A stretch of DNA of 14,211 bases, from UHGV virus genome UHGV-0117243. One strand, 5' to 3'. Positions 1 to 14,211 of this stretch are shown here, one piece after another; within the stretch, counting starts at the first letter, position 1; the number at the start of each line of letters is the position of its first letter. This DNA is from a virus. The translations under genes and the position numbers were made by a program. The notes below the pieces were generated by a model that did no database searches, was not told where the DNA came from, and saw only the letters and a program-made list of their open reading frames with translations.

Positions 1-55
1 GGTCATCGGGCATTATCTGAACATAAAACACTATCAGTAAGTTGGAGTCATTACC
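1..55 (+). mobile_element. IS1 insertion sequence, right terminal portion (window starts inside the element); includes the C-terminal codons of InsB and the right inverted repeat
   Basis: Plus-strand bases 2-40 translate to VIGHYLNIKHYQ-stop, matching the InsB C-terminus as recalled. Bases 33-55 (..ctatcagtaagttggagtcattacc) match the canonical IS1 terminal inverted repeat with one substitution. Phage-like coding sequence begins immediately after position 55. Recognised from memory, not searched. Confidence 0.75.
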
Positions 56-107
56 CGAGTCGTGTAGCCTGAATGATTACCGGCACATTGAGATTCGAAT
101 CAGCCAT
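56..107 (-). pseudogene. Tail needle (P22 gp26-like) gene, N-terminal ~17-codon remnant truncated by the IS1 insertion
   Basis: An ATG at 107-105 overlaps the gp10-like stop (TAATG arrangement). It translates MADSNLNVPVIIQATRL, resembling the P22-family tail needle N-terminus (MADPSLNNPVVIQATRL.. as recalled). The frame then runs into the IS1 end and stops within 2 codons. Confidence 0.6.
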
Positions 108-1525
108 TACTCAATCCTTATCTGAGCGCCAGACAGAGTGACAGGTGACTTCGTGATAACGCGCAATTTGAAGCCGACATTTTTCCTGATGCGCCCTACT
201 CGCTTCCACAAAACACGCTTGTCGTAAACGAACGGTTCATTCTGCTCAATCATCTGCTCACGCCCGTAATTGATGCCGTCAGTGGTTGCAGAGAGAAAAA
301 GGCGGTCGGCGTACTGCGCAACGCCAGTTGACGATTCAACCTCAAGGTCGAACACTCTGGCGTTATCCGCTTTGAACAGTGGAGTAAACAGCAGGTGTTC
401 CTGTTGCTTGTCGTACTGGCTGCTGATGTCGAATTGCAATTTCCCGGTCACGGACTCCAGCTTATCACCGCACGTTATCTGATTGCCTTCGTAAATGAAG
501 TCGATAGCTCGGTACACATCGTCATACAGGCCCGTTTTCAGCACACACCATTGCGGACCATTGGCGCTTGAAGATGCGTCGTACACGAGAACATGGCGCG
601 GAAGATGGATAATCAGCAGCTCATGCGCATCAAATCGCAGAGACTCCATCACACCATCAGCCAGTTCATTAGCAGTGTAGGAGCGGAGAATTTTCTCAAT
701 GCTCGCGCTGGCGATTGGTGATACCTGACCGGAGCCGATGATGTATACAGACGGAGCACCTGTTGCCGGATTGCTGATGAACGCATAAGAATCAGCGAAT
801 GGCGTTTTGCAGTAAGTCCCGGCGATGCCTTTTTGCACCATCAGTGATGGCTGTGCGACATACAAAGCAGCACCAACGGTGGTTGCACCAGTCAGGGAGA
901 AATATTCAATCGTCGATGAACCAAAGCAGACGATGAAGTCTCGCCATGTACCTATGCCGATGATGCCATCAGGCTGAGATTCTGCGCGATATTGTGCGCT
1001 GTATCGGTCAGGATGTGATTCGTCTTCAAGGTCAGTGATAAACCATGAATCAGTGCCGTCTTTTGACCACGCATAACGCCCACGTAAGCGTGTAATGTCG
1101 CGGACTGAGCCTAACTCATACTGCGTGAATCCGCTGTCTGTAGGCCAGTTTGAGACGGTTTTAACCGTGCCATCATAGCGATACTCGACCAGTTGACCAT
1201 TAACGCCTACCGCCTGAGATGTTCGACCATGCGCCATTGATACGCGACCACTTCCGGCAACATCACCGACTTCACTTTCTCCTTTGTAGAGCTTGCCACC
1301 ACACACGCGATAAACAGCATTCTGCGCCATGTTGTACTCGACGCCCCGCGATACGCCGTTCACGTCGGAACGTTTGGCAATGCCCGGGAATGAGCGAAGA
1401 TATCCGCTGCTGTTGAGTATTTCTTTGGGTGTAGCCAGCATATTCACTGGCATATAGTCGATATAGTCAGCGTTTCTAAAGTCTTTGCCGACACCTTTCA
1501 TAAGCGGAAGTTGCTGAATCGGCAT
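107..1525 (-). CDS. Head completion / tail accessory factor, P22 gp10 family (472 aa)
   Basis: Full-length 472-aa ORF; N-terminus MPIQQLPLMKGVGKDF.. and length match the P22 gene 10 product family. RBS AGGTGA upstream of the ATG. Sits after the gp4-like gene, as in P22-like head operons. Confidence 0.85.
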   Translation of the reverse strand: MPIQQLPLMKGVGKDFRNADYIDYMPVNMLATPKEILNSSGYLRSFPGIAKRSDVNGVSRGVEYNMAQNAVYRVCGGKLYKGESEVGDVAGSGRVSMAHGRTSQAVGVNGQLVEYRYDGTVKTVSNWPTDSGFTQYELGSVRDITRLRGRYAWSKDGTDSWFITDLEDESHPDRYSAQYRAESQPDGIIGIGTWRDFIVCFGSSTIEYFSLTGATTVGAALYVAQPSLMVQKGIAGTYCKTPFADSYAFISNPATGAPSVYIIGSGQVSPIASASIEKILRSYTANELADGVMESLRFDAHELLIIHLPRHVLVYDASSSANGPQWCVLKTGLYDDVYRAIDFIYEGNQITCGDKLESVTGKLQFDISSQYDKQQEHLLFTPLFKADNARVFDLEVESSTGVAQYADRLFLSATTDGINYGREQMIEQNEPFVYDKRVLWKRVGRIRKNVGFKLRVITKSPVTLSGAQIRIE

Positions 1526-1533
1526 TTATTCAC

Positions 1534-2016
1534 CTATGCGTTTGGGATATCGCCATCAATCAGAGGGAGATCGCCTGGGTAATATCGGTCAGATGTGAAC
1601 ACGTCATATTTATTACCCTGCCCTACAGGAAAATCTCCACGTCGTCGCATTGAAGGAACAACCAGAGTGTCGGTCATCAAGGCATCATATGAGCGTTGGG
1701 CGTTACTGAGAACTTGCGGAGTTGGCTCAAGGCTGTAATCAGATAGCATTCTCAACAATAACTGATAGCCTACTGCGTGTTTGTATTTTCTTGGAAGACC
1801 TGACTCATCATCTGGTAATGGCTGCTCATCTCCAGTTGCGAAAGCGTAACCAATGTCGCCGGGGTTAATCATCCACTCTGACATCATATCTTCCAGATCA
1901 TTTACACCATCTTCAATTGATTGCGGCTCAACATCAGTCAGCGATGCATTAGAAGCAATAGCAAACTTACGAAGCGCAAAAAGGACGATCTCACCCTTTG
2001 TCAGTGCTGTTGCCAT
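1534..2016 (-). CDS. Head-to-tail adaptor / tail accessory factor, P22 gp4 family (160 aa)
   Basis: Translation ..[35 protein letters not shown].. resembles P22 gp4 as recalled (..[36 protein letters not shown]..). Position between coat and gp10-like gene fits. Confidence 0.8.
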   Translation of the reverse strand: [160 protein letters not shown]

Positions 2017-2176
2017 TGTCCGCCGCCTTACGACCTCGCTTACTGGTCGGTTTCAATTCATCAACTGAGGCAACAAAGCCCAACCTTTCGAAAAACTGGA
2101 AGTCTTTTTCTGCGATAACGGCCTGTACATGCCCGGATTCGTTATCTGCGGCAAGGAATACACTCATCCGATCCAT
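1991..2176 (-). CDS. Small hypothetical protein (61 aa) between coat and gp4-like genes
   Basis: ORF with a strong RBS (AAGGAAACAAT-ATG) immediately downstream of the coat terminator; its 3' end overlaps the gp4-like start by 26 nt in another frame. No recognisable motif. Confidence 0.45.
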   Translation of the reverse strand: MDRMSVFLAADNESGHVQAVIAEKDFQFFERLGFVASVDELKPTSKRGRKAADNGNSTDKG

Positions 2177-2184
2177 ATTGTTTC

Positions 2185-2212
2185 CTTAAAACATAAAAGG
2201 GGCGTAAGCCCC
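2185..2212 (-). terminator. Rho-independent terminator downstream of the coat gene (likely partial/attenuating)
   Basis: GC hairpin ggggc-ttac-gcccc on the minus-strand transcript followed by UUUUAUGUUUU, located 7 nt after the coat stop codon. Confidence 0.6.
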
Positions 2213-2218
2213 TTGTTA

Positions 2219-3490
2219 TTACGGATTACCGAAGAACTGACCGCCCATGTGAGGGTTAAAGCACACATATGCAGGAAGTAAGTCGAAGCGCATTTTTTGC
2301 ACGTTGGCATCGCCATCTGCGTATTTATGTACGCGGATGGAGAAACCTTCATATGTTGCAACAGCAGAATCAATACTGTGCAGTTTCGGCAGTGGGATAG
2401 AGCCAAGTCCACAGAAGAACTTGTTATAGAACAGGTTTGGCTTCATTGTCTGGCTAGCAGTGCCTACTACAGATACGGCATCGCCTGCCTCTACCTGACG
2501 ACTTACAGAGTTGTACTGCGGGTTTGTAGTGTCATAAATCGGAACACCAGAAAGCGTAACCGTCACATCGCCACTGCTGTCTGAATTAGCATCAGCAGTA
2601 ACCGTTGCAGTGAAGCTAATTGGTGTGGCTCCGTTATACAACGCCTGTTTGGTCTGCTGTTGCAGCCAGTAGGTATTGGTGAATTTAACCTGATCACCAG
2701 CTTTCAGAAAACCTGTAACGCTGGCTGTCGCTCCGGTCAATGTTACAGTGAACTGGTATGAGTCTTTAACTGCGTTATAGGTAACAGTTGGCTGTGTTTT
2801 GACTGTCAGTGTTCCGCCAAATGCCCCCTGCGTACGAGAGGCAAGCCCATTAGACATCAGTGCGCGAATGCCGCCAAAATTGGTTGGAATCTGCGCATTC
2901 TCCCATGCAGTACGAACCAATTGATCTGAAGCGTGCAAACCAGTCTGCGCATCAGCAAGTCGCTGTGCAGACCATGGATCCATTACAGCATAGTTTTCAC
3001 CTTCATTAACGCCGAGGTCTTTCAGGAAAGATGCCGTCTGCGCAACATCAGACCATTTGGTGATTGGAGTATTGGGGCTACCAAGTGACAACGCACCGTT
3101 ATTCATCATGAAGTGAGCAAGCTCTGTTTCAAGGTCGGTAACGATTCGCTGGCGAACCGGCGCGAGAATTTCTTCCAGTTGGTTAAGCTTGATCGCTTCC
3201 TCCAGTTGCTGATATTCAACAGCAACAGTGATGTAGTTACCTACACGCCCCGTAGCTTTACCTGAGATCAGGTTGTTTTTATTTTGCCCTGAAATATCAC
3301 CAGTGGGAGTACGGAGGGATGAGAATTGATGCGGACGTTTAAAGCTAACGCTATCGCCAGTGCTGGAGTTGATTTCACCTGCCAGCAACTGACGGTCTAC
3401 GGTTTTCGCCAGAACTAAATCTGACATAAAACCCGGAAGGAATTTTTTCAGAACGATTTGACTGACGTTACTGTCGAGATTGTTAGGCAT
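2219..3490 (-). CDS. Major capsid (coat) protein, P22/Sf6 coat family (423 aa)
   Basis: 423-aa ORF directly after the scaffold gene with RBS AAGGAAAAG. Size and position match P22-like coat proteins (Sf6 coat is 423 aa as recalled). Followed by a terminator. Confidence 0.75.
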   Translation of the reverse strand: MPNNLDSNVSQIVLKKFLPGFMSDLVLAKTVDRQLLAGEINSSTGDSVSFKRPHQFSSLRTPTGDISGQNKNNLISGKATGRVGNYITVAVEYQQLEEAIKLNQLEEILAPVRQRIVTDLETELAHFMMNNGALSLGSPNTPITKWSDVAQTASFLKDLGVNEGENYAVMDPWSAQRLADAQTGLHASDQLVRTAWENAQIPTNFGGIRALMSNGLASRTQGAFGGTLTVKTQPTVTYNAVKDSYQFTVTLTGATASVTGFLKAGDQVKFTNTYWLQQQTKQALYNGATPISFTATVTADANSDSSGDVTVTLSGVPIYDTTNPQYNSVSRQVEAGDAVSVVGTASQTMKPNLFYNKFFCGLGSIPLPKLHSIDSAVATYEGFSIRVHKYADGDANVQKMRFDLLPAYVCFNPHMGGQFFGNP

Positions 3491-3501
3491 TTATCTTTTC
3501 C

Positions 3502-4386
3502 TTATTCGATTTTTGCGCCGGGGCATAATTTGTTGAATTCGTCTTGTTTCGCATCAGCACCGCCACCACGTACTTCCGGCTCTGGCTTGATGGCTTTCTT
3601 TGGTTTTGGAGCAAGGCTTACCTGTTTGCTAATCTGCCCCAAGAGGAATGCTGCGCGAATTGGATCTGTCTCAGCGGCTACACGCTGGCGTAATTGCTGG
3701 CTCTTACCTAAGCCATAGGCGAGTAGTTCAGAGCCTTCGTCTGCACAGTGAATGATGATTTCCTGCTGAATTGGTGGTAGCTCACTAAGAACAATGGCCT
3801 CCATTTCCTGATAATCTTTCACAGGAAGTTTGGCTGCCCGTTGTTTATGCGCTTCTAACCTTTGCTGGAAACGCTGTTGGTATTCCTGTTGCTGACGTAG
3901 TTTTTGTTGCTGCTGCTGTTCGACACGGCCTTTTTTCTCATGCCAATCAGTCAATGCCTGTTCAAACGCCTGTTCGTCATAATCACACGACTCAAGAGTC
4001 GGTTTTGGTGGAATAGCGTCTGGTTGTGGTTGCTGATGTTCCGCAGGCTTGGCTAATGCTTCCTCAAGCTGGCGGCGCAACTCACGGTTTTCTTTCTGTG
4101 TTTCTTTGAAGCCTTTGCGAAGATCTTTCACCCATTGCGGTGCAGGTTGCCCGTCAATGTGATCATCATCGTCAGCGTTAAGCTGAATTTCTTCATCACC
4201 AATACGCAAGGCGTAATCTTCTGGTGTCTCTTCGGTTTTTTCAGGATCAGTTGCCATCTCTTTTCCGTTGTCATCCTGGCTTTCATTCTCAGGCTGTGAC
4301 TCTGTTTGGATGATGGTTTCTTCTGCATTTTCCTGTGTTTCAGACAGGTCAATAACCTGACCGTCGATGATCAGTTCGTTTTCCAT
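3502..4386 (-). CDS. Scaffolding protein (294 aa), P22 gp8-like
   Basis: Acidic, Q/E-rich, predicted helical low-complexity protein between portal and coat. The C-terminal region (..KDYQEMEAIVLSELPP..LAPKPKK..) resembles the P22 scaffolding C-terminal coat-binding domain. RBS AGGAG. Confidence 0.7.
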   Translation of the reverse strand: MENELIIDGQVIDLSETQENAEETIIQTESQPENESQDDNGKEMATDPEKTEETPEDYALRIGDEEIQLNADDDDHIDGQPAPQWVKDLRKGFKETQKENRELRRQLEEALAKPAEHQQPQPDAIPPKPTLESCDYDEQAFEQALTDWHEKKGRVEQQQQQKLRQQQEYQQRFQQRLEAHKQRAAKLPVKDYQEMEAIVLSELPPIQQEIIIHCADEGSELLAYGLGKSQQLRQRVAAETDPIRAAFLLGQISKQVSLAPKPKKAIKPEPEVRGGGADAKQDEFNKLCPGAKIE

Positions 4387-4399
4387 TGATTACTCCTGG

Positions 4400-6526
4400 T
4401 TAACTCGGCATTAAGTCTGCCGGTGACTGTGGTGGTGACTGGAATTGCTGTTGTTGTGACTCGGCGACATCTTTCAGAAGGCGTATTGCCTCCATCACTG
4501 CTTTGTCATCGATGTTTCTGGCTTGAGCCAGTTTATAGACAGTGTTTGCCTGACTCTCCATCGCATCCTGCTGGGCAGTAAATGCTTTGATTTGAGTTTG
4601 AGCGGTTTCGTTAGTTGCTTTTTGCGCTTCTGCCTGCGCTGCTACCATTTGCGCCTGAGCGAGAACCATTTCAGGATTTGGCTGGCTTTGTGCTGCCATT
4701 TGCGCCTGTTGAACAATCTGCTGCTCTTTCTCATTGCGTGGTTTTGCAATACCAGATATCAGCAGTTGGTTTCGGTTGTACTCTTTGAAGTCATCAAGGC
4801 CTTCGCCATCGATATTGTCCAGAATAATACCCTGAATTGCCGGGCGCATTGGGTCTGTTGGAAGCATAGAGCTAAGGACATTTGTCAGTACAGAAACCGT
4901 TGCATCACGTCGTGCTGTGTAGCTTGGTCCAACATCAACCGTCACATCGTATCGACCGACAGAAAGGTCATTTAACGCAACAACAGCCCCTGTTTGCCTG
5001 TCAACAACCTGTGCGCTCAGGACAGCGATATCATCACTTCCATCTTCGTTAACGATGCGCACTTCACGTTCTGAACCGTACACTTCACGCGCCATTGACA
5101 GCCATACTTCACCAGCGCGTTTAAGACTTTTCGCCATATTGTCCAGATAGATAAACGAAGCCATATCTGCTCTGTTCATCAAGTTGTTAACCGTTTCCTG
5201 AGCAATATTACTTGGCATCTGCTGCATGGCCTGACTGCCGCCTGTAACCTCCTGAATATCTGCACTGGTTTGCTGTAGTAATGCAGCCAATGCCTGATTC
5301 ATAACCGCAGGCTGTGTATATCCTGCCGGGGTAGCTCCAGCGATAATGTTGCCAGATTTATCTCTCACTTCGCGCAACGGCAAGAACGCTGGGCGTTTCT
5401 TGTTGCGAGCCTCCCAGTGCTTCTCAAGTCCACGAATTTGCTCCATGCCAACTATAGGGATCTGACCGGGGTCTTGCGCTGCAGTATCAGCCAGCATTGA
5501 AACCTGAAGGTTGTACAAACGCTGTGGATCCATTGCTTTTGCAATGTGCCCTTCGACACGCTCAATGTCATCAATGAACCAGCGTTTTCCATAAACCGGG
5601 ATGAGGGGGATATGCTCACCAGGAATACGTCGAGGTTTCTCAAGGAAACCATCACCATCCACTACGGATACATACACACGACGGCGCTTCACTGAGCGCC
5701 TTGCCACTTCCTGAAATCCAGATATTGCCAGTTCATCTTCAATATCTTCAACCTGATCACTGTCGTATGTTGCAATCTCTCCAGTGATTGGATGTCGATA
5801 ACTGATGACGTCAACAGACTCTTTACGAACTTCGTAATACTTCGCTATGTAAATAACATCTGCATCAAACCAGTCATATTCCCAACTGGTCATAGACGTT
5901 ACATCCAGAGAAGCAGGAGGTTTCTTTCCGTATTCAGCCTCATATTTTTCAGGTGACAACGAATACATGCAGAACGCCCACAACGCGTCAGATTTGTCGT
6001 ACTTCTTAGCGTCAGGGTCAAACCACACAGAGCGCGACGGGTCGTATATTGGTTCAATAGCAATGCGCTGACGATCGTCCATGGGGTCGTATTCATTGAC
6101 CAGCATCGACGTCAAACGGAAGCAACCGAAACCACCAGTAGCAGCGTCGTCAAATGCATTATCGCAAGCCTCACCGCCATCAGTTTCTTCGTAGTCAGCA
6201 CGGAACAGACCATTTAATTTATTGGCTAACTCTTCGCTTGCCTCTCTGTCACCAGGACGAAACTTAACGGTGATTCTGTTATTGCGGTATTCTGCAATGA
6301 TGCGGTTAAGTTCAGTTGCTACCTTATTGATTTCAAACTTAGGATACTTCTCGAACTGCTCATCAAGCTTAGTCCCAGCCGCCGTTGCTCCTTCCCATTG
6401 ACCTCCGGGGACACGAGCAAACCTCGTAGCTTCAATGCACTTTTCGCGCACTTCCTGCTGTGGAGAATAGGCGCGGTCAAACCTGAGCATGATCCGCTCA
6501 TGTTTTTTCTCTAATGTCTCTGCCAT
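4400..6526 (-). CDS. Portal protein, P22/Sf6 portal family (708 aa from Met25 of the 732-aa ORF)
   Basis: Contains the motif GEHIPLIPVYG resembling P22 portal GEHIPIVPVFG. Long Q/A-rich helical C-terminus typical of the P22-type portal barrel. Start chosen at MAETLEKK.. (6526), 2 nt after the TerL stop, giving 708 aa; the longer ORF start would overlap TerL by 70 nt. Confidence 0.85.
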   Translation of the reverse strand: MAETLEKKHERIMLRFDRAYSPQQEVREKCIEATRFARVPGGQWEGATAAGTKLDEQFEKYPKFEINKVATELNRIIAEYRNNRITVKFRPGDREASEELANKLNGLFRADYEETDGGEACDNAFDDAATGGFGCFRLTSMLVNEYDPMDDRQRIAIEPIYDPSRSVWFDPDAKKYDKSDALWAFCMYSLSPEKYEAEYGKKPPASLDVTSMTSWEYDWFDADVIYIAKYYEVRKESVDVISYRHPITGEIATYDSDQVEDIEDELAISGFQEVARRSVKRRRVYVSVVDGDGFLEKPRRIPGEHIPLIPVYGKRWFIDDIERVEGHIAKAMDPQRLYNLQVSMLADTAAQDPGQIPIVGMEQIRGLEKHWEARNKKRPAFLPLREVRDKSGNIIAGATPAGYTQPAVMNQALAALLQQTSADIQEVTGGSQAMQQMPSNIAQETVNNLMNRADMASFIYLDNMAKSLKRAGEVWLSMAREVYGSEREVRIVNEDGSDDIAVLSAQVVDRQTGAVVALNDLSVGRYDVTVDVGPSYTARRDATVSVLTNVLSSMLPTDPMRPAIQGIILDNIDGEGLDDFKEYNRNQLLISGIAKPRNEKEQQIVQQAQMAAQSQPNPEMVLAQAQMVAAQAEAQKATNETAQTQIKAFTAQQDAMESQANTVYKLAQARNIDDKAVMEAIRLLKDVAESQQQQFQSPPQSPADLMPS

Positions 6527-6528
6527 GT

Positions 6529-7941
6529 TTACCAACCGGAGGATGAGGGAACGTATATTTCTGTTTCTTCGCGGACCAATGCCGGGCAATGCATACACAT
6601 CATCAGCGCATCAGCCAGGTTAGGAGATGGAATACCGAGCTTCTGCTTCATTTCGACCTTAGTCATAAGCTCCAGCTTCCCGTTATTATTGAATTTGCGC
6701 TGAATCTGCGTCAGTTCTGCAAACAGCTTCTCCAGCATCTTCTCGCCTATCGCTTCTTTGTCGAAACTCAGCATGTCGTCTGGGTCTGCATACTCACCGT
6801 GAACAACCGCCCGATATGTCAGATACAGCCTGTCAGCCAGCGCGTAATAGAATTGTGCTCGCTTATTGCGGAACACATCGCCAATAGTGCGAACGTTGTC
6901 ACCCTGTACGACTTCATCAGCCCATGCTCCGGCCTGATACGGCGCATCTTCATCGAATGGCGATTCGCTGCCCTTGAACATCGTGGCGGTGATTTTCTTG
7001 CCGGAGAACGCTTCCGTTGTCTGTCTGCGTAGGCCCGCACCGACGCCATCACCATCCCACAGGTAATGGTCAGCGCCGTCTTCAATTGCCAGCGAAGTAG
7101 CCCAGTCAGCACCCTCGTTGATGTCCATCAGCAGACCTTCGGCAATGCGCTTAACTACCGAACCGTGACGCGATGCATAACCTTTAGCATCTGGCCCTGT
7201 ATCTGATGGGTCATGCGCAGAGACAACAGCGCCTTTCGCTTTCCATCCGAGTTTCTTGTGCGCATCGGTTGCGGCTTCAAGCCATTCACGTTTGATGATT
7301 GCCATATCACTTGCGCTTACTGGCTCACCAAGCCAGATGTGACGATACAGTGTCGGGTTTCTGCGTTTACACTCTTCCATCTCCAGACGGAGGACTTCAG
7401 GAAAATGCGGGTTGTCGGTGTAGTTCACCGTCAGCAGGCAAATATCATCGGGAGGATTTACGACGAATCGCTGATAGGTATCGTCGAGGATGTTTTTCGG
7501 GTTGAAACTTACCCATATTTCAGAGAACGGCTTACGGATGGTTGGAATCAGGATATCCCACGATTCCTTCGTTACCGCTTCCGCTTCTTCCACCCAGCAG
7601 ATATCAATGCCTTCGAGCGATTTAATCTTCGTCGGGTTGTTTTTGATGCCGTAGAACATGAATTCAGCATTCGTTCCGAGATGACGAATCATGGAACGCT
7701 GAATTTCAAACTCAGCCGAATACCCTTCACGCTCGATGGTATCTTCAAGCAACCGGATTACCGAATCGCTGATACTGTTTTGCAGTTCACGAGCGCAGAG
7801 AATACGCACTGGCTGCCGACGCGCCGCTTCAACAAGCAGCCTCGCAATTGCCCATGACTTACCGCTACCTCGACCGCCTTTGGCGACTTTGTAGCGATGC
7901 GCCTCAATGAACGGTTCAAAGATAGGATTAATCGAGGTCAT
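6529..7941 (-). CDS. terL: Terminase large subunit (470 aa)
   Basis: Walker A motif VAKGGRGSGKS near the N-terminus, 470 aa, overlaps the terS stop (ATGA), directly upstream of portal. Confidence 0.9.
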   Translation of the reverse strand: MTSINPIFEPFIEAHRYKVAKGGRGSGKSWAIARLLVEAARRQPVRILCARELQNSISDSVIRLLEDTIEREGYSAEFEIQRSMIRHLGTNAEFMFYGIKNNPTKIKSLEGIDICWVEEAEAVTKESWDILIPTIRKPFSEIWVSFNPKNILDDTYQRFVVNPPDDICLLTVNYTDNPHFPEVLRLEMEECKRRNPTLYRHIWLGEPVSASDMAIIKREWLEAATDAHKKLGWKAKGAVVSAHDPSDTGPDAKGYASRHGSVVKRIAEGLLMDINEGADWATSLAIEDGADHYLWDGDGVGAGLRRQTTEAFSGKKITATMFKGSESPFDEDAPYQAGAWADEVVQGDNVRTIGDVFRNKRAQFYYALADRLYLTYRAVVHGEYADPDDMLSFDKEAIGEKMLEKLFAELTQIQRKFNNNGKLELMTKVEMKQKLGIPSPNLADALMMCMHCPALVREETEIYVPSSSGW

Positions 7942-8465
7942 TTTCCGAATAGAGTGCTCATCGGTGATGTTTCAATCTGGATTGCGCCGCCGTCTTTGCC
8001 TGTTAGTTCGTGAGAAGCTTGTTCTTTAAACGCCTGAACAGAAACATGCTTACCAAGAAGTTCGAGGTTTTTAACCTTATCAGGCCATTTGATTTTCTTC
8101 AGGAGTGCGGCGCTATCTGCGGATGCCATCTCCACGACATCCATTCCTGATAACGTTGTGCGCCATACCTTAGGCCAGTCTTTAATGGGTTTTAGCTCAC
8201 CGTTTTGCAGGAGAATGTCAAGCACATCCATCTGGTCGATTTCAATAAGGCGATTAAGTACATATTCTGCATTAATACCAACAAGATCATTGCGTTGTGC
8301 TTTCAGTTCGGCGATTCTGAGTTGTATGTCAGGTTTTGACATGTTTTCGGACGCAGTACGGTTGGCTGTTTTTGCGCTGTACCCCGCCCGAATAGCCGCT
8401 TGCGTGGCGTTTAAATCGATGAGGTACTCGCGACAGAACATTTCTTGCTTGTCGGTGAGTGCCAT
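7938..8465 (-). CDS. terS: Terminase small subunit (175 aa)
   Basis: N-terminus MALTDKQEMFCREYLIDLNATQAAIRAGYS is a typical phage small-terminase HTH region. Translationally coupled to terL. RBS AAAGGTAA. Confidence 0.8.
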   Translation of the reverse strand: MALTDKQEMFCREYLIDLNATQAAIRAGYSAKTANRTASENMSKPDIQLRIAELKAQRNDLVGINAEYVLNRLIEIDQMDVLDILLQNGELKPIKDWPKVWRTTLSGMDVVEMASADSAALLKKIKWPDKVKNLELLGKHVSVQAFKEQASHELTGKDGGAIQIETSPMSTLFGK

Positions 8466-8489
8466 TTAATTACCTTTGGGAGATGCCCA

Positions 8490-9023
8490 ATGAGTTTAGA
8501 AAAATTACTAATCAAAAACAGAAAGTGCGGTTCATGCTCTGTGTGCTGCACTTCGCTACGAATTGAACAGCCAACGTTAAAAAAGTTGGCTGACATCCCA
8601 TGCCAGCACCTTAAACATCAGGGAGGATGTGCAATTTATGATGAACGCCCTTCTGTTTGCCGCACTTGGTATTGCGGATGGCGAATTCTGGATATAGGAC
8701 CAGAGATGCGTCCTGATCGGAGTGGAGTTCTAATCCGTTATGATGGATCATCACTCTGCTTTCAACCCGTAGACAAAAACCGCGTATCTGCTTTGATCGA
8801 ACCAGAGCCTCTGCGAATTTTGGGTGGCCTGATAGATCAAGGTATGAAAGTGGAAATATCGGTTCCAACAAAGGAAGGGTATTGCTCAGCCAATATTAAT
8901 GTCACTGAGCATATGTCAGAGGTTGTAAAAAGCAGAGAGTATGTAAAAATGCGTTCGGCTCTTTTGGCGCTCATTCAATTCGCATCACGAGCAAAGACAG
9001 ATCCAGTAGAACCGCTGGAATGA
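8490..9023 (+). CDS. YkgJ/UPF0153-family cysteine-cluster protein (CxxCxxCC putative Zn/Fe-binding domain), 177 aa; accessory (moron) gene on the opposite strand
   Basis: Motif CGSCSVCC followed by ..PCQHL..GGCAIYDERPSVCRTWYCGW.., characteristic of the CxxCxxCC family. RBS GGGAGA 7 nt before ATG at 8490. Own rho-independent terminator immediately downstream. Start chosen at MSLEKL rather than the upstream Met, which would overlap terS. Confidence 0.65.
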   Translation: MSLEKLLIKNRKCGSCSVCCTSLRIEQPTLKKLADIPCQHLKHQGGCAIYDERPSVCRTWYCGWRILDIGPEMRPDRSGVLIRYDGSSLCFQPVDKNRVSALIEPEPLRILGGLIDQGMKVEISVPTKEGYCSANINVTEHMSEVVKSREYVKMRSALLALIQFASRAKTDPVEPLE

Positions 9024-9031
9024 TTATTCAG

Positions 9032-9055
9032 GTCGGGTTTAACACCCGGCTTTTT
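9032..9055 (+). terminator. Rho-independent terminator of the YkgJ-like gene
   Basis: 7-bp stem (gtcgggt / acccggc) with 5-nt loop followed by TTTTT on the plus strand, 9 nt after the stop codon. Not followed by a T-run on the minus strand, so unidirectional. Confidence 0.7.
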
Positions 9056-9298
9056 GAAATGGTACTCATTGCATCGCTTAATTTTCTTTAAATGAGAAAC
9101 GTCCTCTTTCTTAACTGAAGACATTAATTCTTTATCAGTTCGAACATTCATTTTTTTCCATTGCATGATCTTCGCTAATTTATAATTTGCAGTTCTTCTG
9201 CAACGATTTGTTATGTGATAGAATATCTCTCTTCGTTTGGCGGTCCATTACTTCAATATCGTGATCATTAAGGTATAGGCTTTGTAATGCCTACATGG

Positions 9299-9778
9299 TT
9301 AAATGATTTGCCAGTCTTCAGCCATCAGGTCGCCAATGGATGGAGCCCATGTAGCAAGGCGGTTCTGTGAGTTTTTCAATACAAGCGTGTCATTGAAAGT
9401 TGGCTCGCCAACATATTCGCCAAAGCCATAACCCAACGCAGACGCTAATTTTTCTCCTTTCACGAGATAAACAAACTGATCTTTCCCATTCCATCCTGCC
9501 CGCTGCAAACTTTTGCCCTGTTTTAACGCTTCCATGGCAAGGCCGAAACTTAGCCCTGATACCGGACGATAAGCCTTTTCGAATACTTCTTTTGGACTCC
9601 AGCTAACGTAGCCATCAAAGCGATCGGTGTTAGGTTTTCCGCCATCCAGATATTCAACCAGATAGCCTTCGTCCTCGCCGTTTTCTCCGGCAGGAAGCTG
9701 CCAGCCACGAAAATCGTTATATGCCTGTCTCGTCATCGGAAAGGCGTTAATCAGTTTTACGCCAATATGTTGGGTCAT
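9299..9778 (-). CDS. Hypothetical two-domain protein (160 aa) with C-terminal DUF2829-like domain
   Basis: C-terminal half ..AMEALKQGKSLQRAGWNGKDQFV..LATWAPSIGDLMAEDWQII fits the DUF2829 pattern as recalled (..GWNGK.. and ..AEDW.. motifs). N-terminal half unrecognised. Start set at Met42 of the 200-aa ORF because the upstream codons run through a terminator hairpin. RBS weak (AGGT). Confidence 0.55.
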   Translation of the reverse strand: MTQHIGVKLINAFPMTRQAYNDFRGWQLPAGENGEDEGYLVEYLDGGKPNTDRFDGYVSWSPKEVFEKAYRPVSGLSFGLAMEALKQGKSLQRAGWNGKDQFVYLVKGEKLASALGYGFGEYVGEPTFNDTLVLKNSQNRLATWAPSIGDLMAEDWQII

Positions 9779-9800
9779 AAAATTACCTATGGAGTTGGGA

Positions 9801-9825
9801 ATAAAAAAACCCCGCGAATGCGAGG
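9801..9825 (-). terminator. Rho-independent terminator between Rz and the DUF2829-like gene
   Basis: On the minus-strand transcript: cctcgc-attc-gcgggg hairpin (6 bp including one G-U pair) followed by UUUUUUUAUU. On the plus strand the same stem carries a C-A mismatch and is preceded, not followed, by the A/T run, so it is strand-specific. Confidence 0.65.
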
Positions 9826-10000
9826 CTAAATCCTGGTGTTTGTGATGACTGGCTCTTATCTCAACGCAGCCCCTTACCGCGCGCCAGATGCTCAATATCA
9901 AGCATCAGCAATGAGATGTTTAATCTGGATTCACTCCAGAAGTGATCACCACCCTGTCTACAGAGCCAGATGTGAAGGATGATGAGTAGAATTATCGCTA

Positions 10001-10438
10001 TCATCGAAGGCATTGCGTCCTGATGTATTCCTGCAGGTAGTTAACCTGCGCGGTTATCCTGTCGATTCCGCTTCGGAGACGGTAATAATTAAGTTCAGCA
10101 TCTGCTGTAAGTCTTGGGCTTTCTCCATCGCCCATGCTGCTGGCTCCGGTCGTTGACTTTGCACAGGTGGCGGCGACTTGCAGGCGCTTACGACCAGCAG
10201 AAACATCAGCACGGAGACTTTCAATAGTCGCGTTAGCATCAGCAAGCTCCTTTGTGTATCTGGCGTCGAGTTCTGCTACGTCACGTTGACGCTTCTGCAT
10301 ATCAGCGATGATGGATGTGGCTTTATCTCGCTGTTCTTTGTAGGCGATGGCGTTATCACGGTAATGATTAACAGCCCATGACAGGCAAACGATGATGCAA
10401 ATAACCAGAGCGGAGATAATCGCGGTTACTCTGCTCAT
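10001..10438 (-). CDS. Rz: Rz spanin (inner-membrane subunit, i-spanin), 145 aa
   Basis: N-terminus [31 protein letters not shown] matches lambda Rz; the C-terminal half diverges. Start overlaps the R stop. Confidence 0.8.
10054..10245 (-). CDS. Rz1: Rz1 o-spanin lipoprotein embedded in the +1 frame of Rz
   Basis: ORF nested wholly inside Rz in another frame. Hydrophobic leader ending in a lipobox-like VSAC, then a Pro-rich segment ([12 protein letters not shown]), as in lambda Rz1. Exact start uncertain. Confidence 0.6.
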
Positions 10439-10911
10439 ACCTCAATCTCTCTGACCGTTCCGCCAGCCTCTTTGAATTTTGCAATCAGGCTGTCAGCCTT
10501 ATGCTCGAACTGACCATAACCAGCGCCAGGCAGTGAAGCCCAGATATTGCTGCAACGGTCGATAGCCTGACGAATATCACCGCGATCAATCATCGGTAAA
10601 GCGCCACGCTCTTTAATCTGCTGTAGTGCAACAGCGTCCTGGCTTTTCGGAGAGAAGTCTTTCAGCCCAAGCTGCTTACGGTATGCATCCCACCAACGGG
10701 AAAGAAGCTGGTAACGTCCGGCTGCTGTTGATTTGAGTTTGGGGTTTAGCGTGACAAGTTTGCGAGGGTGATCTGAGTAATCAGTGAATAGCTCTCCGCC
10801 TACAATGACGTCATAACCATGATTTCTGGTTTTCTGCCGTCCGTTATCAGTTCCCTCTGACCACGCCAGCATATCGAGGAACGCCTTACGTTGATTATTG
10901 ATTTCCACCAT
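10435..10911 (-). CDS. R: Endolysin, lambda R-type lytic transglycosylase (158 aa)
   Basis: Translation [39 protein letters not shown].. is collinear with lambda R over the full 158 aa (from memory). Overlaps the S stop as in lambda. Confidence 0.95.
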
Positions 10912-11218
10912 CTTCTACTCCGGCTTTTTTAGCAGCGAAGCGTTTGATAAGCGAACCAATCGAGTCAGTACCGATGTAGCCGATGAACACGCTCGTTATA
11001 TAAGCGAGATTGCTACTTAGTCCGGCGAAGTCGAGAAGGTCACGAATGAACCAGGCGATAATGGCGCACATCGTTGCGTCGATTACTGTTTTTGTAAACG
11101 CACCGCCATTATATCTGCCGCGAAGGTACGCCATTGCAAACGCAAGGATTGCCCCGATGCCTTGTTCCTTTGCCGCGAGAATGGCGGCTAACAGGTCATG
11201 TTTTTCTGGCATCTTCAT
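10895..11218 (-). CDS. S: Holin/antiholin, lambda S (S107/S105 dual-start), 107 aa
   Basis: [34 protein letters not shown].. matches lambda S, including the Met1-Lys2-Met3 dual-start motif. Confidence 0.95.
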
Positions 11219-11460
11219 GTCTTACCCCCAATAAGGGGATTTGCTCTATTTAATTAGGAATAAGGTCGATTACTGATAGAACAAATCCAGGCTACTGTGT
11301 TTAGTAATCAGATTTGTTCGTGACCGATATGCACGGGCAAAACGGCAGGAGGTTGTTAGCGCAACTTCTTGCCACCCGCTTTCACGAAGGTCATGTGTAG
11401 AAGGCCGCAGCGTAACTATCACTGATGAATTCAGGATAGCCAGTGGCTACGGCTCAGTTA

Positions 11461-11536
11461 TGGTGCTGGTTAACGGACTTGAACCGCTACCCATTCGCTT
11501 ACAAGGCGACTGCTCTACCATTGGAGCTAAACCAGC
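11461..11536 (-). tRNA. tRNA-Thr (anticodon UGU), 76 nt with encoded CCA
   Basis: Manual fold of the minus-strand sequence: perfect 7-bp acceptor stem (gctggtt/aaccagc), 4-bp D stem with GG in the loop, anticodon loop cuUGUaa, 5-nt variable loop, T arm agcgg-TTCAAGT-ccgtt, discriminator A, CCA. One mismatch at the base of the anticodon stem. Confidence 0.65.
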
Positions 11537-11541
11537 ATATT

Positions 11542-11616
11542 TGGCGGGACAGCGTGGACTCGAACCACGATAAGAAGGTTAACAGCCTTCCGTAATGACC
11601 TTTATACGACTGACCC
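11542..11616 (-). tRNA. tRNA-Asn-like (anticodon GUU), 75 nt with encoded CCA; possibly partly degenerate
   Basis: Anticodon stem-loop gaagg-CUGUUAA-ccttc and T arm cgtgg-TTCGAGT-ccacg resemble E. coli tRNA-Asn. The acceptor stem has a T-T mismatch at pair 4 and the D stem has only 3 pairs. Begins 3 nt after the tR' U-run. Confidence 0.5.
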
Positions 11617-11890: not shown

Positions 11891-12514
11891 CTAACGTGTG
11901 ACCGCGTTCAAAATGTTGTCTGCGATTGACTCTTCTTTGTGGCATTGCACCACCAGAGCGTCATACAGCGGCTTAACAGTGCGTGACCAGGTGGGTTGAG
12001 TAAGGTTTGGGATTAGCATCGTTACAGCGCGATATGCGGCGCTTGCTGGCATCCTTGAATAGCCGACACCTTTGCATCTTCCGCACTCTTTCTCGACAAC
12101 TCTCCCCCACAGCTCTGTTTTTGCTATATCAACCGCACGGCCTGTACCGTGGCAATCTCTGCATCTTGCACCCGGCGTCGCGGCACTACGGCAATAATCC
12201 GCATAAGCGAATGTTGCGAGAACTTGCAGTACCTTTGCCTTAGTATTTCCTTCAAGCTTTGCCACACCACGGTATTTCCCCGATACCTTGTGTGCAAATT
12301 GCATCAGATAGTTGATAGCCTTTTGTTTGTCGTTCTGGCTGAGTTCGTGCTTACCACAGAATGCAGCCATTCCGAATCCGGCTTGTGATTGCGCCATCCC
12401 CATAGCAGCCATCACATCAGTACCGGAAAGAGAGTCAGAAGCCGTAGCCCGTGGTGAGTCGCTCATCATCGGGCTTTTTGGCGAATGAAATTTAGCTACG
12501 CTTTCGAGTCTCAT
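11891..12514 (-). CDS. Q: Late gene antiterminator Q (207 aa)
   Basis: [48 protein letters not shown].. matches lambda Q in sequence and length. Start overlaps the NinI stop (ATGA). Confidence 0.95.
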
Positions 12515-14137: not shown

Positions 14138-14211
14138 TATTGGCGTCCTGCATCATGAGAAAGACAATCATGGCGGCGCGGAGAGGTCTGGTATCAAATA
14201 TTGGGCTTACG
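14130..14211 (-). CDS. Partial ORF (C-terminal end only; 5' end beyond the window), nin-region gene of unknown identity
   Basis: Open frame running in from the window edge, ending ..[26 protein letters not shown]-stop, with the stop overlapping the NinF start by 8 nt (translational coupling typical of the nin cluster). Identity not recognised. Confidence 0.3.
   Translation of the reverse strand, partial: VSPIFDTRPLRAAMIVFLMMQDANNA

Follow-up and report, generated by a model that had tools for sequence, protein, structure and literature searches.

IS1 truncates the tail needle gene of a P22-like Escherichia coli prophage at what is most likely a rearrangement junction

We analysed a complete 14,211-bp scaffold from a human-gut metagenome (ENA, FENG16-1_SAMEA4378297_METAG-scaffold_1826), referred to here as the window, whose source holds no sequence to the left of an IS1 end. 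PHROG and Pfam scans gave, from right to left, ninF, ninG, ninH, a NinI-like phosphatase, Q, two tRNAs, holin, endolysin and Rz, followed by a Tad2-like ORF, a reverse-oriented Cys-cluster ORF, terS, terL, portal, scaffold, coat, a 61-aa ORF, gp4 and gp10 (Table 1). With the exception of the Cys-cluster ORF (8445–9023), the one convincing gene of the plus strand, these genes are encoded on the minus strand. The P22-type portal, scaffold, coat, gp4 and gp10 genes stand in the order of a Lederbergvirus-type late operon; the ejection proteins (gp7, gp20, gp16) and tailspike that belong downstream of the needle are absent from the window. The window represents the late half (head genes to tail hub) of a prophage from human-gut E. 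coli of the P22/Sf6/HK620 type. Apart from the needle, no gene differs in length from its counterpart in intact relatives, which bears out the original prediction that the morphogenesis operon runs intact through the gp10-like gene and that the lysis and cargo genes are undamaged. An identical gp10-like protein is present in contigs with intact needles, and the portal ORF, as an open frame, extends to 6598 from an upstream GTG.

Table 1 Features of the window, with the evidence for each.
Feature	Position	Strand	Evidence
IS1 right end	1–55	+	53/54 versus IS1A 715–768; 100% to end of the IS1 in contig L003
Tail needle gene 5' remnant (P22 gp26/Sf6 gp9 type)	56–107	-	Translation; alignment with L004, L005 and L006
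gp10-like packaged-DNA stabilisation/tail hub protein, 472 aa, intact	107–1525	-	Pfam Phage_stabilise, E 8e-300, full-length
gp4-like tail accessory/head-completion protein, 160 aa, intact	1534–2016	-	Pfam P22_Tail-4, residues 1–159 of 159
P22-type coat protein, 423 aa, intact	2219–3490	-	Pfam P22_CoatProtein
Scaffolding protein, 294 aa	3502–4386	-	Pfam Phage-scaffold; length as in relatives
Portal protein, 708 aa as called in relatives L004 and L006	4400–6526	-	Pfam P22_portal
Terminase large subunit	6529–7941	-	Pfam Terminase_3
Terminase small subunit	7938–8465	-	PHROG 51
Rz spanin, full length	10001–10438	-	Lysis cassette, PHROG scan
Endolysin, full length	10435–10911	-	Lysis cassette, PHROG scan
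Holin, full length	10895–11218	-	PHROGs 126, 90 and 13 cover the three-gene lysis cassette (10001–11218)

The 670-nt gap between Q and holin holds tRNA-Thr(TGT) at 11461–11536 and tRNA-Asn(GTT) at 11542–11616, both on the minus strand; lambdoid phages often carry tRNAs or toxins in this late-promoter region. Between Rz and the terminase genes lies a minus-strand ORF at 9299–9901, called as 159 aa (9299–9778) in relatives, whose C-terminal Tad2-like domain (PF11195, Thoeris anti-defence 2) makes it a candidate anti-defence cargo gene; PHROG 872, which it also matches, carries no known function. The plus-strand ORF, reverse-oriented between the Tad2-like ORF and terS, has a weak CxxCxxCC match, is annotated as a 'YkgJ family cysteine cluster protein' in relatives and is a moron-like insert.

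The gene that follows gp10 is broken almost at its start. Translation of the minus strand from 107 to 1 gives MADSNLNVPVIIQATRLG followed by two stops: the needle frame runs for 17 codons plus one nucleotide (52 nt) and then meets TAA and TGA, both supplied by the IS1 inverted repeat, for a product of 18 aa. Its ATG (107–105) overlaps the TAA stop of gp10 (109–107), and the 17 retained residues, MADSNLNVPVIIQATRL, are identical to the N-termini of the intact needles of L004, L005 and L006 in alignment. The full-length needle of the near-identical relative L004 is a 282-aa protein with a Pfam Phage_tail_NK match; its residues 1–144 match P22 gp26 structures (2POH, 3C9I, 4LIN; E ~1e-44) and its residues 130–282 match the Sf6 gp9/HS1 knob structures (3RWN, 4K6B; E ~1e-90). 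Both the interruption after 17 codons within positions 1–107, on which the translation and a multiple alignment (A1) agree, and the identity of the broken gene as a P22 gp26-like needle had been proposed beforehand, and both stand. Like P22 gp26 and Sf6 gp9, the stump lies directly downstream of gp10 with an overlapping start and carries the N-terminal plug homology of a gp26-type protein; unlike them, it keeps 52 of about 700–850 nt, and with the frame ending after residue 18 the shaft and the C-terminal tip or knob are gone. Judged by its sequence, the needle gene here is a remnant and not a functional member of its family. Because the relatives differ in their needles (282-aa knob type in L006, 233 aa in L005), the original tip type is unrecoverable from 52 nt.

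The bases that replace the rest of the gene are the right end of IS1. In pairwise alignment, window positions 2–55 matched positions 715–768 of K-12 IS1A, the last 54 nt of the element, at 53 of 54 sites (98% identity), in agreement with the original prediction of an IS1 terminal inverted repeat at 1–55; the sole mismatch turns CAA into CAG in the final sense codon of insB and leaves the amino acid unchanged. On the plus strand, positions 2–40 hold the final 13 codons of insB (VIGHYLNIKHYQ and its stop), and positions 33–55 form the 23-nt right terminal inverted repeat, which ends in ...GTCATTACC as expected of IS1, its terminus ...CATTACC closing at base 55. The 55-base stretch occurs once in the window and in 0 of 200 shuffles, and IS1 copies matching it number in the tens of thousands across E. 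coli genomes; owing to these bases, a megablast of window 1–2500 against 5,426 complete E. coli genomes returned 72,067 places.

The breakpoint can be placed to the nucleotide. In the 237 complete E. coli genomes with the phage part, the megablast alignment opens at base 56 or later, and the alignments to Sf6, HK620 and N7 likewise start from base 56 or later. In alignment A1 the intact genes read ...ACACGACTCG followed by ACACATCAG, whereas the window reads ...ACACGACTCG followed by GGTAATGACTCC, the IS1 end. Written as codons, the intact genes continue ...ACA CGA CTC G/AC ACA TCA (T R L D T S) and the window ...CTC G/GG TAA TGA CTC C, the IS1 terminus. IS1 accordingly abuts nucleotide 52 of the needle gene, cutting its product to an 18-residue peptide, and the left end of the window is an assembly break 55 nt into IS1.

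A 159-kb contig from another sample and another assembler (L003; ERZ27229563, k119_46588), found via its exact gp10 protein, is 100% identical to window 1–11525, with the IS1/needle junction included. The junction stands at the edge of a scaffold assembled from short metagenomic reads, which is where an assembly artefact might be suspected and the needle might be intact in the organism. We find this scarcely credible, however: the identical junction appears in the independent sample under a different assembler, the breakpoint coincides with the outermost nucleotide of the IS1 inverted repeat, just where a transposition event would leave it, and the 55 nt of IS1 are contiguous with the stump within the scaffold.

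L003 also carries the sequence beyond the window's edge, being the sole contig among the matches listed that crosses the IS1, by short-read assembly through a 768-bp repeat. The rest of the element, which had been expected to the left, is there in full: 768 bp (L003 11471–12238), aligning without gaps to IS1A at 90.9% identity, with 23-nt inverted repeats that are 87% complementary, an intact insA (91 aa) and insB (167 aa; DDE_Tnp_IS1, PF03400, E 1e-74), and the A6C frameshift motif TTAAAAAAC at ~11925–11935 on the reverse strand. These hallmarks of a ~768-bp IS1 (InsA, InsB and the A6C motif) are found in L003, the window itself holding only 55 nt. The L003 copy, a divergent isoform relative to IS1A, is 100% identical to copies annotated as 'IS1 family transposase' in complete E. 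coli genomes and therefore is not a hybrid of isoforms; its sequence indicates a complete, potentially active element.

On its far side, L003 opens with ACCTAA, the last 6 nt of agaI, and continues through a 400-bp spacer into intact yraH, yraI, yraJ, yraK, rsmI, lpoA, yraN and diaA in K-12 order. Many E. coli genomes match this agaI–yraH flank at 100% identity, and from L003 we infer that the window's own far side is the same. The remainder of the needle does not resume beyond the IS1, and DUF2824/gp14, gp7, gp20, gp16, arc/mnt and the tailspike are likewise absent from the L003 locus, as the original prediction had allowed for the ejection and tailspike genes. The IS1 of L003 sits ~400 bp upstream of the cryptic yra fimbrial operon (spacer L003 12239–12640), whose expression it could affect.

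IS1 makes 8–9-bp duplications of its target and also promotes adjacent deletions and inversions. A duplication of 8–9 bp had been anticipated, and none was found around the L003 element: the 9-nt stretches bordering it, CACGACTCG and ACCTAACCA, bear no relation to each other, and no direct repeat flanks it. This argues against a simple insertion, not against the identity of the element as IS1. Because L003 lacks a target duplication and its far side is chromosomal, a rearrangement is favoured, and we conclude from the sequences that the IS1 junction is most likely a rearrangement boundary and not a simple insertion. Such a missing duplication is a signature of IS–IS recombination or adjacent deletion (PMC11708052). 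The choice left by the original prediction, between a simple insertion with the needle resuming beyond IS1 and an IS-mediated loss, most likely falls to the IS-mediated side, simple insertion being improbable.

Had IS1 simply inserted, a 9-bp duplication and then the remainder of the needle gene with the whole tail/ejection/tailspike module would follow directly beyond it, and L003 would be mis-joined to a different IS1 copy adjacent to agaI. The window's assembly broke at IS1, a sign that its sample contains more than one copy of the IS1 end. E. coli genomes carry multiple IS1 copies, at a median of 11 places each, and such copies are common near agaI–yraH, so that a second one at that site is plausible. 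The far side in L003 is moreover one displayed contig from a different sample, built from short reads through a 768-bp repeat, where a mis-join is possible. Yet MEGAHIT normally breaks at unresolved repeats rather than joining through them, the L003 IS1 is a natural isoform throughout (100%), and two more long contigs group with L003 and not with the intact-needle group, although they are known by this grouping only. The reciprocal junction that a simple insertion predicts (IS1 end, 8–10-bp duplication and needle remainder) was not found in JGI metagenomes, a set without the ENA assemblies behind the window and L003 in which the absence of a junction says little. We judge simple insertion to be an outside contender, at roughly one chance in several; were it true, the prophage would still be needle-null and defective, and could revert by precise excision.

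Most likely the junction is instead a scar of IS1-mediated rearrangement, for which the candidate events are IS1–IS1 recombination, intramolecular transposition leading to inversion, and adjacent deletion. Any of these would have taken away from this locus the needle gene beyond its stump, together with the ejection genes (gp14, gp7, gp20, gp16), immI and the tailspike. Inversion or IS–IS recombination comes close to an even chance of having made the junction, and adjacent deletion is a possible but lesser candidate; with the integrase and attachment site beyond the limits of the window, inversion and deletion are indistinguishable here. Orientation offers one further constraint. In the relative H85, the tail module is followed by gtrCBA, intS and argW, and the late operon is directed towards argW, which in K-12 coordinates is the decreasing direction. 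The late operon of L003 is co-directional with yraH (plus strand, increasing K-12 coordinates). On the assumption that the prophage had integrated at argW, the junction can be explained only by inverting ~0.8 Mb; for a deletion to account for it, integration would have to have taken place elsewhere, upstream of the aga cluster. We offer tentatively, as a doubtful but specific proposal, that the IS1 junction is one end of a ~0.8 Mb inversion from an argW-integrated prophage to the agaI–yraH spacer. Such an inversion would part the head and lysis genes of the prophage from its tail, ejection and tailspike genes, leaving each half bounded by an IS1 copy, and IS1–IS1 recombination could in principle restore the prophage; a split prophage of this kind would be carried by an E. 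coli lineage of gut metagenomes in several samples.

We scanned for both junctions elsewhere. An exact scan with the needle/IS1 junction 35-mer found nothing in species-representative genomes, IMG/VR or the JGI metagenomes (where, as above, absence says little), and an exact scan for the IS1/agaI junction found nothing in species-representative genome contigs. Neither junction had a single-piece match in the 5,426 complete E. coli genomes, where the IS1 copies near agaI occupy other positions. Absent from all collections scanned, the junction arrangement is for that reason without closed-genome corroboration, and the exact junction is lineage-specific. For the nin-to-terminase half of the window, which is mosaic, no complete genome covers 80% or more.

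The same genomes point to a wider tendency of the site. In 105 complete genomes, IS1 lies close enough to the end of agaI to share one match with it, and in E. coli APEC_AN-25 (L020, 2355–3376) IS1 sits between a truncated garD and a truncated agaI, an independent IS1 deletion. The APEC_AN-25 case resembles L003 in that IS1 separates two unrelated truncated genes with no duplication, and differs in that one flank of L003 is a prophage gene. The agaI 3' end/yraH upstream spacer is, on this showing, an IS1-prone hotspot.

Comparison with intact phages and prophages dates the lesion. Sf6 shares 98% DNA identity with window 56–8000; HK620 covers 71% of the window, at 97% identity. Sf6, HK620 and P22-like E. 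coli prophages share with the window the order nin-Q-lysis-terminase-portal-scaffold-coat-gp4-gp10; the window element differs from them in having nothing past needle codon 17 at this locus, and in carrying other cargo (the Tad2-like ORF and the reverse Cys-cluster ORF) between lysis and terminase. In intact relatives, gp10 is followed by the needle, DUF2824 (gp14), gp7, gp20, gp16, arc/mnt and the tailspike. The closest intact relative, L006 (GCA_040446205.1), differs from the window by 5 mismatches in 11,470 nt. Since nothing else in the window has decayed and L006 differs at so few sites, the lesion is recent, which indicates, as far as sequence can, a recent crippling of the prophage and not domestication.

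The original prediction had suggested a domesticated or decaying prophage. Its decaying part is supported, as a recent event; its domesticated part found no support. Under domestication, the head/lysis/cargo half, with its Tad2-like gene and two tRNAs, would have been kept by selection for a benefit to the host, as the intactness of all remaining genes and the presence of cargo genes might suggest. That intactness is, however, explained by recency, given the few mismatches to an intact relative, and the arrangement is absent from the 5,426 complete genomes, so there is no widespread conserved remnant. We rejected domestication as very improbable on the grounds that the divergence from the intact relative is too small. 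Taken together, we hold with high confidence that this is a defective prophage whose needle gene was truncated by IS1 in a recent event, most likely at the scar of a rearrangement.

The consequence for the phage can be gauged from P22. There, gp26 plugs the portal channel with its N-terminal end; when the plug is missing, packaged DNA falls out again, and an amber mutation at codon 54 already has a null phenotype (PMC3741392). A stop after residue 18 would therefore be null, whichever rearrangement produced it. If induced, the prophage could fill heads but would be unable to plug them, and no infectious virions would be expected; P22 genetics in this way supports the earlier proposal that the element cannot make infectious particles, a loss of infectivity drawn by analogy with that phage. 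If L003 mirrors the genome of the window, the ejection proteins and the tailspike are missing as well.

The host is E. coli, judging by the L003 flank. Of the two hosts first proposed, E. coli or Shigella, the former is favoured and the latter is not indicated; we rejected Shigella on the 100% identity of the flank to E. coli and the intact yra operon, in comparison with a collection that held no Shigella. The lesion is an instance of ordinary prophage decay, a well-known phenomenon, and neither the IS1 nor the phage is new. Its importance beyond annotation is small. The scaffold is properly labelled a defective, truncated P22-like prophage and not a viable virus, with its left boundary an assembly break caused by IS1, and entries of viral catalogues cut at IS elements are not to be counted as complete or infectious. 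It also offers a clean, datable example of IS elements inactivating and splitting prophages in commensal E. coli.

Two minor observations concern the relatives. In L006, positions 17069–19162 (arc/mnt to gtrC) form 2.1 kb without a called gene where a tailspike is expected, and may be a disrupted tailspike. In L021 (E. coli VTB97584v), tailspike, gtrC, gtrB, gtrA, intS and argW are contiguous at 16253–20593, the arrangement of the K-12 cryptic prophage CPS-53 (argW-intS-yfdGHI), which suggests from gene order that CPS-53 could be a remnant of a P22-like phage of the L021 type.

At the right end of the window (14186–14211) lies another boundary, of assembly or mosaic origin. Position 14186 is where the alignments stop for L010, L012, L013 and L015, which are other lambdoid prophages, and for L017; the contig L016 from another sample ends exactly at 14211, and the parent contig of L003, as calculated from its coordinates, runs ~65 nt beyond that. 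Several gut metagenomes seem to share this strain and prophage.
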